From positions 2,848,001 to 2,912,000 of the forward strand of contig OY970067.1 of the NCBI GenBank assembly GCA_963705305.1: a stretch of 64,000 nucleotides of DNA, written 5' to 3'. The position numbers were made by a program, and so were the translations under genes. Below the pieces are notes generated by a model. It saw nothing but the letters and a program-made list of their open reading frames with translations, searched no databases and was not told the origin of the DNA. Positions 3,689 to 8,116 of the stretch are shown here, piece after piece (within the stretch, counting starts at the first letter, position 1; each line of letters starts with the position of its first letter). Source of the DNA: an uncultured Methylomirabilota bacterium (GTDB lineage: Bacteria; Methylomirabilota; Methylomirabilia; Methylomirabilales; 2-02-FULL-66-22).

Positions 3689-4267
3689 TCACGAGCTTGC
3701 ACCAGTGCTGGACAGCCCTCCGGGACTTCCGGGGCGTCGGAGGGGCCAACTCGCACCAGTTCTCTTCTGTTGCGAGTTGTGGAGGAGCTGGGTGAGGGCA
3801 TTGGCCGCCCGCAGCTTGTCCTCCTTGGTGACCCTGGCGTCGATCGTGGTCGCCTTGATGCTCGCGTGCACCACTTACTCCTGGACGACCGCCAGGTCGT
3901 TCCCGCTGGCCCGGTCCAGGTGGGTGGCGTAGGTGTGCCGACAACTGTGAGTGGCGTACCGGGGATCCAGCCCCACGGCCGCCATGAGGCCTTTCACCAC
4001 CCGCCAGACCCCCTTCCGGGTGAGGGGCCCCCGCTGGCCGAGGAAGACCGGGGCCTCCTCGGACACATTCTCCCCAAGGTCCCGCTTCCAGGTCAGGAAG
4101 GCTTTCAGGTGCGTCTTGAGGTCCGGGGGGATGAAGACCTCCCGCTGCTTGTTCCCCTTGCCCTGGCGGACCGCCAGTGAGGCCTGGCCGTAGCCCAGGA
4201 GGCAGTCCCGGACTTGGGGGCCGGCCACCTCGGAGGCCCGGAGGCCGGAAGAGAGAAGGGGGTCGAG
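3689..4267 (-). pseudogene. Tyrosine recombinase pseudogene, C-terminal part
   Basis: GLRASE, GKG, HSCRHTYAT, HAS motifs; in-frame TAA at 3875-3877; expected catalytic Tyr reads Asp (TTIDAR); interrupted by IS at 4268. Confidence 0.85.
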
Positions 4268-4458
4268 TGGCCGCAACACCATAGACGTCGTCACCTTTCA
4301 CCACGACGGCAGTCGTCACCGTCAGTGATCGTTCATCCGGTGGTTCCCTTTCTCGAGAGGCCCGCCTAGGTTCGGTCCAACTTACCTCCCGGTATCCATC
4401 CTGAGCGGAAGCCCGGCCCATCGGGTACGGTGTCGCCTTCCATCTGGGAGGTGAATCG

Positions 4459-4785
4459 ATGCCCCGAGCTCCGCGGCGCCGACGGTGCCCCTTCTGTCAG
4501 ACTCTCTTCCGTCCGCATCCCCGCCTGGGGCCGCGGCAATGGACCTGCGGGGCGCCCGCCTGTCAGCAGCAGCGGCATGCCGCCAGCTGTCGGGCTTGGC
4601 GCCGCCGGAACCGTGCCGTGACCCGCACGCACTACCGGGACTACGTGCACCCGGCCCGGGCGCGGGCCGCGCCCACGCCGGTCTCCCCGCGCCAGGTGGC
4701 GAGCTTCCTGCGCGGCGTGCTCCCTGCGATGCGAGACGCGATTATGGCGCAAGGGCAACCCCCATGCGGGGTTCGGGCCCCCTAG
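4459..4785 (+). CDS. Small basic Cys4 (zinc-finger-like) protein inside the IS21 element
   Basis: GGAGGTG RBS; CPFC-x16-CGAPAC followed by an Arg-rich helix. Confidence 0.7.
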   Translation: MPRAPRRRRCPFCQTLFRPHPRLGPRQWTCGAPACQQQRHAASCRAWRRRNRAVTRTHYRDYVHPARARAAPTPVSPRQVASFLRGVLPAMRDAIMAQGQPPCGVRAP

Positions 4786-4956
4786 AATGCACCCCGGACG
4801 GCGCGAGACGCGATCTGGTCGGTTCGGGCTGGGTTCCCGCGGGGTTACACCCTCCTAACTGCATGAGGGCGCGAGACGCGATCTGGCGTCAAGCCCTGAT
4901 CCCACGGGCCCTTCGCCCCCGTTAGTGCGCCGCGGGAAGGTGATACGAGACGCGAT
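4731..4956 (+). repeat. Array of four exact CGAGACGCGAT repeats with ~70-bp period
   Basis: 11-mer at 4732, 4804, 4872, 4946 (spacing 72, 68, 74), separated by different 57-63 nt spacers. Confidence 0.9.
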
Positions 4957-5009
4957 AGGCGGATCGGGAGTTCGGTGGTACACCCGGGGCATCCGGAAGG
5001 AGGTGCCCC

Positions 5010-6509
5010 ATGCTGGCCGCCGCGATTCAAGCCGAGATCCTCCGGCTCCGCTATGCCGAGCGCTGGGGCTACAGCCAGATCGCTCGCCACCTCGGCATCC
5101 ACCGGGAGAGCGCCCGGAAGGTGGCGCTGCGCCGGAGCGTGGCCTTGGTGCCCGCGCCGCCGGCGCCGCGGACCACGGTGGTCACGCCGTTCCGGGCCCG
5201 CATCCAGGCGCTGCTCACCGAGGACCCGGCGCGCTCGGCGGTGACGATCTTCCAGGTGCTCCGGCAGGAGGGCTACCGGGGCGGCAGCAGCGCGCTGCGG
5301 GGCGCCGTGCGCCGGCTGCGGCCGAGTGCCGCGCCAGCTGCCATGGCCACGCTCAGCTTCGGCCGCGGGGAGGCCGCCCAGGTGGACTGGGGCGAGTTCG
5401 GCGACGTCTTCGGGATCGGCCGGGCCGTCCATGCCTTCGTGCTCGTCCTGTGCTACTCCCGGCTCTTGACCGTCACCTTCACCTTCAGCCAGACCCTCGA
5501 GGCGTTCCTGCGGTGCCACGAGGCTGCCTTCGCCTTCGTGGGCGGCTGCCCAAAGGAGTGCTGGTACGACAACCTGGCGACGGCGGTGGCCGAGCGGCAC
5601 GGGAAGCTCGTCCGCTTCCACCCGCGCTTCCTGGCGTACGCCGGCCACCACCGCTTCCGGCCGGTGGCCTGCAACGTGGGCAAAGGGAACGAGAAGGGGC
5701 GGGTCGAGGACGCCATCAAGTACCTCCGGACGAACTTCTGGCCGGGGCGGACCTTCCGCGATCTCGCCGATCTGAACACGCAGGCCCAGGCGTGGCGGGA
5801 CACGATCGCGAACCAGCGCGAGCACCGCGTGACCCGGAAGATCCCCGCGCTCCTCGTCGCCGAGGAGCGGCCGGCCTTGCTCCCACTGGGGGAGCCGTAC
5901 GACACGGACGAGGTGCGGAGCGTGGTGGTGCCGCCGAGCTTCCGCGTGGCCTTCGACGGGAACCGGTACTCGGTCCCCTGGCGCTTGGTGGGGAAGCCGC
6001 TCACGCTGCGAGCGGATGCGGACACGGTGACCCTCTGGTATGGCACCCATCGCGTGGCGCGGCATGGCCGCTGCTGGCGGCGCGGGGTGGAGGTGGTGCT
6101 CCCGGCCCACGCCGACGGGCTCCTGGCCACCAAGCCCGGTGCGCAGGCCCACTGGCAGGTCGAGGCCGTGCAGGCGCTGGGGCCCGCGGCCCGGCAGTAC
6201 CTGGAACTCATCCGGGCGGGGACGCGCTCGCTCCGGACGGAGTTGGACCACCTGCTGCTCCTCACGACCCTCTATGGCCCGGCCGCGGTGGAAGCCGCGC
6301 TCGCCGCGTGCCTCGCCCAGGCCATCGTCGGGAGCCACCAGGTCGAGCAGTGGCTCCGGCTCCAGGACACGCCGCCCGTGGCGCCGCCCCCACTCACGCT
6401 CGGGGATCCCCGATTGAGCGTGCCGCCGGTGCGCCCCAACCTGCAGCGGTACGATGCCCTGCTCCTCGACGCCGATCCGGAGGACCATGATGGCAACCCC
6501 GACGCTTGA
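5010..6509 (+). CDS. istA: IS21-family DDE transposase
   Basis: N-terminal HTH, GEAAQVDWG, YDN, KGRVE motifs, DGNRYSVP; AAGGAGG RBS. Confidence 0.95.
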   Translation: MLAAAIQAEILRLRYAERWGYSQIARHLGIHRESARKVALRRSVALVPAPPAPRTTVVTPFRARIQALLTEDPARSAVTIFQVLRQEGYRGGSSALRGAVRRLRPSAAPAAMATLSFGRGEAAQVDWGEFGDVFGIGRAVHAFVLVLCYSRLLTVTFTFSQTLEAFLRCHEAAFAFVGGCPKECWYDNLATAVAERHGKLVRFHPRFLAYAGHHRFRPVACNVGKGNEKGRVEDAIKYLRTNFWPGRTFRDLADLNTQAQAWRDTIANQREHRVTRKIPALLVAEERPALLPLGEPYDTDEVRSVVVPPSFRVAFDGNRYSVPWRLVGKPLTLRADADTVTLWYGTHRVARHGRCWRRGVEVVLPAHADGLLATKPGAQAHWQVEAVQALGPAARQYLELIRAGTRSLRTELDHLLLLTTLYGPAAVEAALAACLAQAIVGSHQVEQWLRLQDTPPVAPPPLTLGDPRLSVPPVRPNLQRYDALLLDADPEDHDGNPDA

Positions 6510-7257
6510 GGAGAAGCTGACCCAGCTCCAGCTCATGAGTGCCCCCGCGTTCCTCGCCGCGTGGGGCGAGCGGCATCCCGCCGAACGCGCGGCAGTCCGC
6601 GCGGTGCTCGAGGGGCTCGTCGATCGGGAGCTCACGCGGCGGAGCGAGCAGAAGGTGGCGGCGCGGATCAGGGCCGCGCGCTTCGTCCAGCTGCAGACGG
6701 CAGACACGTTCAACTTCGAGTACAGCGTCGCCACCCGGAAGCTCCGGAGTCGCTACCTGAACCTCTTGGCCACCGACCTCGTGGTCGAGGGGATCGGGGC
6801 GCTGTTCGTCGGGGGGAGTGGCTTGGGGAAGACGCATCTCGCCCGGGCCTTGGGCTATGCCCAGTGCCAACGCGGGCAGAGCGTCCTGTTCACGTCGCTC
6901 GCCGCCATGGTGAACCACCTGAGCGCGGCGGAGGCGACGAAGACCTTGCACCGGGCGCTCAAGACGTACCAGAGCCCCGGGTTGCTGGAGATCGACGAGG
7001 TCGGGTACGTCAGCCTGCGCCAGCCGGAGAGCCACCTCGTGTTCCAGGTGATCTCCGTCCGGCATGACCGGCGGAAGCCAACGGTGGTCACCACGAATCG
7101 CACGTTTGGCGAGTGGAATCAGATCTTCGCCGACGACGCCGTGGCGCACGCCATCCTGGACCGGCTCGCGGAGCGGGCCGAGGTCTTCCACCTGGAAGGG
7201 ACGAGCTATCGCGAGACCCACCGCCGCCCCGCGCCGAAGGTCGCGACACCTTCGTAG
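6487..7257 (+). CDS. istB: IS21-family AAA+ helper ATPase
   Basis: Walker A GGSGLGKTHLA, Walker B IDEVGY, TTN, AILDRL, GTSYR; overlaps istA. Confidence 0.95.
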   Translation: MMATPTLEEKLTQLQLMSAPAFLAAWGERHPAERAAVRAVLEGLVDRELTRRSEQKVAARIRAARFVQLQTADTFNFEYSVATRKLRSRYLNLLATDLVVEGIGALFVGGSGLGKTHLARALGYAQCQRGQSVLFTSLAAMVNHLSAAEATKTLHRALKTYQSPGLLEIDEVGYVSLRQPESHLVFQVISVRHDRRKPTVVTTNRTFGEWNQIFADDAVAHAILDRLAERAEVFHLEGTSYRETHRRPAPKVATPS

Positions 7258-7420
7258 TCGGGGTCCGCTGCCCGCGTCTCCCTGCGACGGGCGTGTTGGC
7301 GCCTCAAATCTCCCGCGCCTGCGCACCCGTCTGCCTCGCGCCTCACAGTGCCGGGATCCATCGTGGCGCTGCCGGTGCCCTTCCCGCCGAAAAGCGACGA
7401 TCTCGATGGTGGCGCCTCCA

Positions 7421-7559
7421 GTCGAGCAGGCCCCAGGACCGGATCGGCCCTGTAGTGCCCTGCTGGCGGGCCTGGGTTGCCCGAGATTCGGCGAACCGGC
7501 GGAGGCGGGTCAGGTTCCTCCGCGGTCAGAGAACGGATCTCGTGCTGGACGGTAGGCAT
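7421..7559 (-). pseudogene. Tyrosine recombinase pseudogene, N-terminal part
   Basis: AAGGAG RBS; MPTVQHEIRSLTAEE / frameshift near 7514 / LTRLRRFAESR...WGLLD joins PLLSSGLRASE once the IS and one target copy are removed. Confidence 0.75.
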
Positions 7560-8116
7560 GAGCGCATCTCCTTGCATCGCAGCTGACCCGACCGCCGCCG
7601 GCCGCGCGCCAGGGTGAAGCTCATTCCCCGGGACCCCCGGAGCGGCTACATGCGCCACCCCGAGGCGATCGGGCGTCAGGCCAGAGTGTTCGCTGGGCGG
7701 CCTCGGGCAGAGCGGGCGGTCCGGAGGCGGTCTGCCGCCGCGCGCCGTTGCTCCACGGTCCCCGCCCGACCGGGCCCTGGCCGGCGCACTCGGATCGCGG
7801 GGAGGGGAACCACCCAGAAGGCCGAGGTCGCCTTCCCGTCGCGGCCCAGCGGCTCTCCTCTCCCGTTTTGCCTTCCAGTTGCGCGGGGACTGCGCCGCCG
7901 TTCATCAGGGTGCTAACCCCACTCCGGAAAAATCTCACCGCCACGTCGCCAAGAATGCCATGGTTGAAATGGACGGATCACCCAGGGACCGGACGGCGGC
8001 GAGTTCCCTGGGGGCGTCTCGGAGCACGGAGGAAAGCCAGCTGAACGACTTGCATCGAGGAGCCTTGGCGCCATGGTGGTTCAAGCGTTTCTATGGTGCA
8101 GGGCTCATTTTTGATT

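Follow-up and report, generated by a model that had tools for sequence, protein, structure and literature searches.

Members of the IS21 family of insertion sequences (IS) consist, in the available part of the published description (PMC10122671), of two open reading frames (ORFs) flanked by terminal inverted repeats (TIRs) built of the sub-repeats L1/L2 and R1/R2. Here, we describe an IS21-family element of an uncultured Methylomirabilota bacterium (assembly GCA_963705305.1, contig OY970067.1) that carries an additional conserved module (i.e., a gene for a small zinc-ribbon protein and an array of short, regularly spaced direct repeats, hereafter cores) ahead of its transposase gene. All coordinates are positions in the window, which is the whole 64-kb stretch that was analyzed (contig positions 2,848,001 to 2,912,000); the host genome is 5.6 Mb. 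Like the IS21 and IS5376 prototypes, the element encodes an IstA DDE transposase and an IstB AAA+ protein in tandem and has sub-repeat TIRs, TG...CA ends, and a short target duplication. Unlike these prototypes, as far as the available part of their description extends, it contains a third gene (4459 to 4785) and a 3- to 4-core array, which together occupy the approximately 740 bp separating the left end from istA. An earlier note, made from the letters of this DNA, had likewise taken canonical IS21 elements to encode only IstA and IstB, in agreement with that source. Given the IstA type, the downstream IstB, the sub-repeat TIRs, and a short target duplication with defined ends, the element belongs to IS21 by its machinery; the third ORF and the array make it a variant in organization.

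Several other described systems share features with this arrangement. In IS1, the small zinc-finger regulator InsA is encoded ahead of the transposase frame and binds the terminal repeats. The element described here also has a small Cys4 protein at the 5' side of an IS, which by analogy could plausibly act as a negative regulator of the transposase, but no sequence relationship to InsA was apparent (no Pfam family at E ≤ 0.01), and the candidate sites are internal and distinct from the ends. Phage Mu has an operator/enhancer beside a small regulator gene, i.e., a set of repeated internal sites that lies several hundred bp inside the left end, is bound by the N-terminal domain of the transposase and by a repressor, and stimulates synapsis. 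An internal cluster of sites in a transposable element with DDE and AAA+ proteins is comparable to it, although the likeness would be one of arrangement instead of homology and the cores are unlike the end sites of the element. The centromere and iteron arrays of plasmids and phages are direct repeats with a period of approximately 10 to 22 bp that are bound by small DNA-binding proteins. Several direct repeats of 10 to 12 bp beside a gene for a small protein are also found here, and distant relatives of the element add a ParB-like gene; the period, however, is approximately 70 bp, a partition ATPase is missing, and the repeats belong to an insertion sequence. Finally, the array has the regular repeat-spacer look of clustered regularly interspaced short palindromic repeats (CRISPR), but only 11 to 15 nt are repeated (compared with approximately 23 nt or more in CRISPR), and the spacers, which can be aligned from one element to the next, evolve neutrally. 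No cas genes are present among the ORFs of the element (i.e., the zinc-ribbon gene, istA, and istB); the wider neighborhood was not searched.

The core CGAGACGCGAT occurs exactly four times in the window, always on the + strand and with the spacings of 72, 68, and 74 nt that the earlier note had stated. Core 1 (4732 to 4742) overlaps codons R92-D93-A94-I95 of the zinc-ribbon ORF, while core 2 (4804 to 4814), past the stop codon of this ORF, and core 3 (4872 to 4882) are noncoding; core 4 (4946 to 4956) lies in the context TGATA-core-ATAGGC, 64 nt upstream of the istA ATG. The array thus stands 465 to 690 bp from the left end. Dinucleotide-preserving shuffles predict 0.06 exact copies, and none of 100 shuffles attained four; a version of this test that allowed one mismatch was uninformative (shuffle mean, 2.8). 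At the genome level, the 12-mer GCGAGACGCGAT has 10 occurrences, nine of which lie within the three copies of the IS, compared with none for the reversed control. The array escapes Tandem Repeats Finder, as its units are too diverged. Cores 1 and 2 share one frame, cores 3 and 4 fall in the other two, and stop codons intervene, so that the frame pattern previously described for the array, including the overlap of core 1 with the RDAI codons at the ORF end, was borne out.

The array is a conserved feature of related elements. The close-family set comprised 85 fetched loci and the window (86 sources). A full four-core chain was found in 71 of the 85 loci and in the window (i.e., 72 of the 86 sources), with core spacings of 70 to 73, 64 to 69, and 71 to 75 nt (mostly 71 to 72, 67 to 69, and 73 to 74 nt). 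Four of the 14 loci without the chain end at a contig end within the array (L056, L062, L076, and L100), L118 has four cores on the opposite strand, L124 is broken after unit 1, and seven others are without a full chain (L057, L120, L121, L123, L125, L127, and L131). The remaining locus, L055 (1340 to 1550), is a natural three-core variant, in which one unit was deleted core to core and istA is intact downstream; this loss looks like recombination between two cores. Across 55 distinct aligned arrays, the cores are nearly invariant and most of the remaining positions are free. In units 1 to 3, a GTT approximately 40 nt and a TA approximately 52 nt past the core start are also held, as are TGATA, ATAGGC, GTGGTACAC, and the Shine-Dalgarno (SD) sequence in unit 4. 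Among the 31 loci with enough istA sequence, mean identity to the window was 0.99 for the cores, 0.54 for the spacers, and 0.61 for the four-fold degenerate sites of istA. The similarity of the latter two values indicates that the spacer sequence is about neutral, while the spacer length is constrained. In five of the 72 sources (L013, L109, L111, L112, and L113), cores 2 to 4 all read CGAGACTCGAT, a G-to-T change, while the coding core 1 keeps the G (CGAGACGCGAT). A joint change of this kind fits one shared reader of the cores, and the CGAGACTCGAT clade could help to locate the specificity residues of such a reader.

Selection on the cores acts on the nucleotide sequence, not on a peptide. 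Among 47 distinct zinc-ribbon ORFs, the codons of core 1 are frozen (R92 is CGA, D93 is GAC, and A94 is GCG in 47 of 47 cases each), while the other conserved Arg positions use two to five codons, with CGA in at most 9 of the 47. Codon usage is also strongly uniform a little past core 1 (A97 is GCG in 43 of 44, and Q98 is CAA in 38 of 41). Units 2 to 4 are noncoding, unit 2 is 64, 67, 68, or 69 nt long, and in-frame stops occur (e.g., of the 55 unit 3 sequences, 10 have one within three codons after RDAI). We considered whether units 2 to 4 could be translated through a frameshift or stop-codon read-through and rejected this on account of the three frames, the variable length of unit 2, and these in-frame stops. 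An in-frame tandem peptide repeat with synonymous variation was likewise not what we found, given the three frames, the intervening stops, and the invariant synonymous sites of core 1 (47/47). Homology links the array units with each other and with the tail of the ORF (RDAI...GV..P*), and we therefore consider that the array arose by tandem duplication.

A protein-alignment scan yielded 28 further loci, in which the zinc-ribbon domain is 34 to 55% identical to that of the window. In 20 of them, IstA and/or IstB follows, at 22 to 31% identity to the proteins of the window (one short segment, 41%). These distant elements usually hold an ORF of 300 to 480 aa between the zinc-ribbon gene and IstA/IstB. 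The two cases scanned (L029 and L033) gave HTH_ParB scores of 23.4 and 21.3 bits, respectively (cut-off, 22.6), and the L029 ORF, the only one scanned against NCBIfam, matched TIGR00180 at 53.1 bits (cut-off, 58.45). The gene order zinc-ribbon, ParB-like, IstA, IstB was observed at L029, L033, L039, L026, and approximately 20 other loci. No ParB-family gene is present in the element of the window. In 22 of the 28 distant loci, the 3' end of the zinc-ribbon ORF is the site of two to four cores (GCGAAAGACCAG, GCGCAAGACGAG, GCGCAATCCGAG, CGAGACGAGAT, and others), 68 to 69 nt apart, and a codon alignment shows these cores to be homologous to that of the window. Thus, as the earlier note had proposed for an accessory module, the array and the small ORF are conserved together within an IS21 subgroup, in close and distant relatives alike. 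The cores always lie between the coding part of the zinc-ribbon gene and the next gene and are coinherited with the zinc-ribbon gene across deep divergence.

The distant period of 69 nt equals 23 codons, and most distant cores are in frame, without synonymous variation. On a first view, these arrays resemble the in-frame peptide repeats that the earlier note had named as a refutation of its reading, although that refutation also called for synonymous variation. In six loci (L027, L028, L029, L030, L032, and L034), however, the last core follows 68 nt on, in another frame, with the motif exact in two loci and changed at one or two letters in four. In four more (L045, L046, L048, and L051), the third core, at 3879, lies past the end of the ORF at 3827. 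The extent of the ORF over the array therefore varies while the array does not, which argues for a signal in the nucleic acid in all subfamilies; conservation at the DNA or RNA level, as suggested for the window beforehand, is upheld by these loci together with the frozen codons and differing frames described above. The same data bear on the idea that the array is a functionless relic, in which tandem copies of the ORF's 3' terminus, once 23-residue peptide repeats, have decayed. The homology of the units to each other and to the ORF tail and the mostly in-frame, 23-codon period of the distant arrays would suit such an origin. A decaying relic would nevertheless be hard to square with cores that are 0.99 identical beside spacers that are 0.54 identical, with frozen synonymous sites in core 1, with a DNA motif kept by out-of-frame or post-stop cores in 10 distant loci, and with spacing that is held without coding. 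This conservation pattern already contradicts the relic, which we regard as highly improbable.

The protein encoded beside the array is a basic Cys4 zinc-ribbon protein of 108 aa (4459 to 4785, + strand; stop codon, 4783 to 4785; SD sequence GGGAGGTG at 4446 to 4453). Its CPFC...CGAPAC motif confirms the CxxC...CxxxxC pattern noted earlier. We detected 116 homologous 90%-identity clusters (E ≤ 0.01), 115 of which have 79 to 132 aa and are 58 to 94% identical over most of their length, while the 116th is a partial match of 152 aa. A profile search collected 1,379 representatives at 50% identity with E ≤ 1e-3 (441 at E ≤ 1e-10). The zinc-ribbon subgroup was seen in metagenome-assembled genomes labeled Acidobacteriota/Terriglobia, Armatimonadota, Planctomycetota, Verrucomicrobia, Anaerolineales, and proteobacteria; the same labels other than Armatimonadota were observed for the distant elements. 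Of 35 family representatives scanned, 34 were without a Pfam family, and the nearest clusters in the ESM Atlas are all annotated as "hypothetical protein," without Pfam. A tblastn search of PLSDB plasmids gave no match, and a search for longer or fused forms returned two rows, neither of them informative. The AlphaFold2 model consists of a zinc ribbon followed by four helices (mean predicted local distance difference test value, 78.6). A two-copy complex prediction (score, 0.09; mark, 0.42) speaks neither for nor against oligomerization.

On the basis of these features, we tentatively propose, at slightly less than even confidence, that the cores are a phased operator array on DNA, which the zinc-ribbon protein binds to control the downstream transposition genes. 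The basic zinc-ribbon protein would recognize each core on double-stranded DNA, and cooperative occupation of three to four phased cores would form a nucleoprotein complex over approximately 225 bp. The last core would abut the -35 region of a putative promoter of the next gene (i.e., istA here and the ParB-like gene in the distant relatives). The protein could then set istAB transcription, either as a repressor or roadblock to read-through from the left end or as a promoter-proximal regulator, and control of the IstAB level would hold transposition in check. A conserved reverse-complement partner of the core was not found within the element in the 72 sources, which favors a protein reader over base pairing. 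An inverted core 8-mer (CGCGTCTC) was observed at 7273 to 7280, 16 nt past the istB stop and adjoining the inner right sub-repeat. It recurs at the equivalent place in four of the 72 sources (the window, L078, L081, and L082) and is, given this narrow distribution, probably due to chance or lineage specific.

Two putative promoters frame the module. A -10-like box, TACGGT (4426 to 4431, + strand; family GGGTACCGT), identified in the alignment of 47 left ends, lies 32 nt before the zinc-ribbon ORF. The box TGGTACACC (4976 to 4984, + strand), near-invariant in the 55 arrays, resembles an extended -10 element, lies 31 nt before the istA ATG, and may be part of the istA promoter; if it is an extended -10, the center of core 4 would lie near -40. 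The TAC-boxes of GGGTACCGT and TGGTACACC (4426 to 4431 and 4979 to 4984) were thus observed at a matching distance of 31 to 32 nt from both start codons, and the pair may reflect the promoter type of the host group instead of the sigma-70 consensus. In 8 of the 17 ParB-type loci shown, CATACTGA follows the last core, mostly 13 nt on, and precedes the ParB-like start by approximately 25 nt. We dropped a sigma-54 interpretation of TGGTACAC...GC, made by eye, since the spacing between GG and GC is one position off. A small share (0.04) of the sampled words was present in only two metatranscriptome runs, both from a single study; their contigs, from relatives (85 to 95% likeness), cover the left end, the ORF, and the istA start, and none falls on the array. 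This mapping was uninformative on transcripts of the array, as the spacers are too diverged for the threshold used.

A number of results weigh against the operator proposal. Regarding the protein, scans of its sequence against Pfam (E ≤ 0.01) and NCBIfam returned no family, Foldseek of its model against PDB gave no match at E ≤ 0.001, and a profile search of PDB sequences gave a chance row only; DNA binding is something we infer from composition only. Regarding the promoters, a sigma-70 and terminator consensus scan of 4200 to 5100 called no sites, and the distance between the last core and the putative -10 is approximately 8 to 9 nt greater in this element than in the ParB-type relatives, so that a single promoter geometry fails. 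Because the geometry varies and the sigma-70 scan calls nothing, the promoter assignment is offered as an inference. Regarding the array, the core spacings of 68 to 74 bp are not whole helical turns. In addition, all cores share a single orientation on the transcribed strand and, in the distant relatives, are found inside coding sequence, and an RNA signal would fit this orientation and location equally well. A further point of this kind comes from the hairpins derived by RNAalifold. In these, 74.7% of the cells are paired compared with 69.3% in shuffles and 37 to 55% in slid controls, and the covariation score is 0.193 compared with 0.126, with none of 500 shuffles attaining 0.193; paired and doubly changed cells are more frequent than in any of these shuffles and than in the slid controls. 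Two features tend to inflate these measures, however: the structure comes from the alignment on which it was counted, and most of its pairs remain open in between a fifth and nearly half of the 55 sequences.

The cores could instead be single-stranded motifs of a polycistronic mRNA, in the 3' end of the zinc-ribbon cistron and in the istA leader, with the zinc-ribbon protein acting as a translational or stability regulator, or could mark processing sites. The RNA-level regulator Com of phage Mu offers a likeness for such a role. We consider this explanation unlikely but worth keeping in view, since all cores are on the sense strand in one orientation in every family, the distant cores lie inside coding sequence, the small hairpins show the weak covariation above shuffled and slid controls just described, and a stem possibly flanks the istA SD sequence. 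Several results speak against this explanation. An Rfam 15 scan of 4200 to 7500 (E ≤ 5) gave two chance-level rows (E values of 1.5 and 1.9) far below gathering scores, and ARAGORN detected no tRNA or tmRNA. RNAalifold predicted -3.8 kcal/mol, seven pairs, and no compensatory pairs from 55 sequences, and folds of individual units contain small hairpins only. The 40 top mutual-information column pairs are mostly non-Watson-Crick, without nested runs. Moreover, the spacers are about neutral, and tandem duplication would also yield a single orientation. The hairpin AACCCC-CATGC-GGGGTT reported previously is present in the window, but it was not seen in several aligned relatives and is not predicted by RNAalifold, and the accompanying speculation that the array is processed into structured RNAs of approximately 70 nt gained no support from the Rfam, compensatory-pair, and mutual-information results. 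The RNA-structure idea is thus unsupported, although it keeps some probability.

The cores could also be internal sites for IstA, which would then have a second DNA-binding specificity, or for a complex of IstA/IstB with the zinc-ribbon protein; like the operator/enhancer of phage Mu, they would act in the assembly or timing of a synaptic complex instead of in gene expression. The Mu-transposase C-terminal domain of IstA, the internal position of the array (given above), and the held spacing with free intervening sequence, as an architectural element would show, are in keeping with this role. Nevertheless, the cores differ between L033 and L039 while the terminal sub-repeats of these loci are nearly identical, and the cores hence do not track the transposase end sites. 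The arrays also accompany the zinc-ribbon gene across elements whose IstA is 22 to 31% identical (with the one 41% segment), the inverted 8-mer near the right end is confined to 4 of the 72 sources, and prototypical IS21 transposes with two ORFs and TIRs only, according to the available part of PMC10122671. We judge a role in transpososome assembly to be improbable.

It is slightly less probable again that the cores are sites of a ParB-like protein supplied in trans, or of a host DNA-binding protein, and that the zinc-ribbon protein does something else. In favor of such a partner, the ParB-like gene starts approximately 50 to 60 nt past the last core in most distant relatives, and a degenerate second relative of the element lies in the same genome near G000:C1:1709113-1709749. 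The family of the window, however, keeps four cores without a ParB-like gene in the element, and the core consensus shifts between subfamilies together with the overlapping zinc-ribbon gene. The cores are also direct and nonpalindromic, while parS sites are palindromic. Binding of the cores by the zinc-ribbon protein, as a phased operator, remains the reading that we prefer.

The boundaries of the element are well defined. The complete IS (4268 to 7420, + strand; 3,153 bp) has TGG...CCA ends. The host genome contains three copies, of which the second is 100% identical across window positions 4266 to 7420 and the third is interrupted. Two uninterrupted paralogs of the flanking sequence connect window position 4267 to 7421 and contain GTCGAG once, from which it follows that the IS ends are 4268 and 7420; GTCGAG (4262 to 4267 on the left and 7421 to 7426 on the right) is the 6-bp target-site duplication. 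The identical copy and the empty-site paralogs also show that the module lies inside the IS ends, as had been claimed. Similarity among 47 related left ends begins at TGG(C/G)CGCAAC. A repeat search identified the left TIR (4268 to 4320, + strand), with direct sub-repeats L1 (4274 to 4295) and L2 (4299 to 4320) that are kept in relatives, and the right end (7294 to 7420, + strand), with sub-repeats 7294 to 7310 and 7407 to 7420 (the repeat pair runs to 7423). The left terminal repeat matches the reverse complement of 7393 to 7420 at approximately 19 of 28 positions. All of these sub-repeats differ from the core, in accordance with the earlier distinction between the core and the terminal motif.

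The gene istA (5010 to 6509, + strand; SD sequence GGAAGGAGG at 4995 to 5003) encodes an IS21-family DDE transposase of 499 aa, which matched NF033546 transpos_IS21 at 265.1 bits (cut-off, 160) and contains the Pfam domains rve (37.6 bits) and Mu-transpos_C_2 (81.4 bits). Directly downstream, istB (6454 to 7257, + strand) encodes the AAA+ helper (PF01695 IstB_IS21, 178.3 bits; cut-off, 24.1); its translation may in fact begin with the ATG at 6487 or 6490. The third IS copy (G000:C1:4197908-4199556 and 4202247-4203737; L003 and L004) is split within istA by approximately 2.7 kb of other DNA. Its two halves share 3 bp of IS sequence, an overlap that suggests another insertion with a 3-bp duplication. 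The IS in the window sits in a tyrosine-recombinase gene (Phage_integrase, 54.6 bits) of another multicopy element (window positions 3875 to 4267 and 7421 to 7750). Uninterrupted paralogs are found at G000:C1:4766049-4767088 and 3833663-3834457, and further partial copies occur elsewhere. The degenerate relative of the IS at G000:C1:1709113-1709749 (L008, L010, and L022) includes a zinc-ribbon fragment of 58% identity that contains an in-frame TGA, together with end-like pieces of 38 to 39 nt.

The data presented here reveal a conserved module of a cis-array and a zinc-ribbon gene in a large IS21 subgroup, with selection at the nucleotide level and constrained spacing. A literature search at the level of titles, with ISfinder outside its scope, found no description of IS21 members that bear an internal repeat array or an accessory gene of the zinc-finger or ParB-like type; a prior description in ISfinder is possible. 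Within the scope of these searches, the carriers of the zinc-ribbon gene appear to form a large, undescribed IS21 subgroup. By analogy, the module might even be the IS21 counterpart of the repressor and operator-enhancer of phage Mu, i.e., an ancient switch that wraps approximately 225 bp and couples expression to transpososome assembly, with an older form that includes the ParB-like protein. We hold this broader idea to be rather unlikely; if it is true, a Mu-like switch would define a large IS21 subgroup (1,379 representatives) with a regulatory logic new to the family. For transposases that act together with an AAA+ regulator, IS21 serves as a structural model, and the element described here provides a testable case of a transposon-encoded candidate regulator with its own phased sites, which are kept regardless of reading frame. 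Further outcomes are an unexpected connection of IS21 with ParB-like proteins and a new protein family whose target sequence is predicted. Should the module restrict transposition or set its timing, it would bear on the low-copy persistence of these elements in environmental bacteria.

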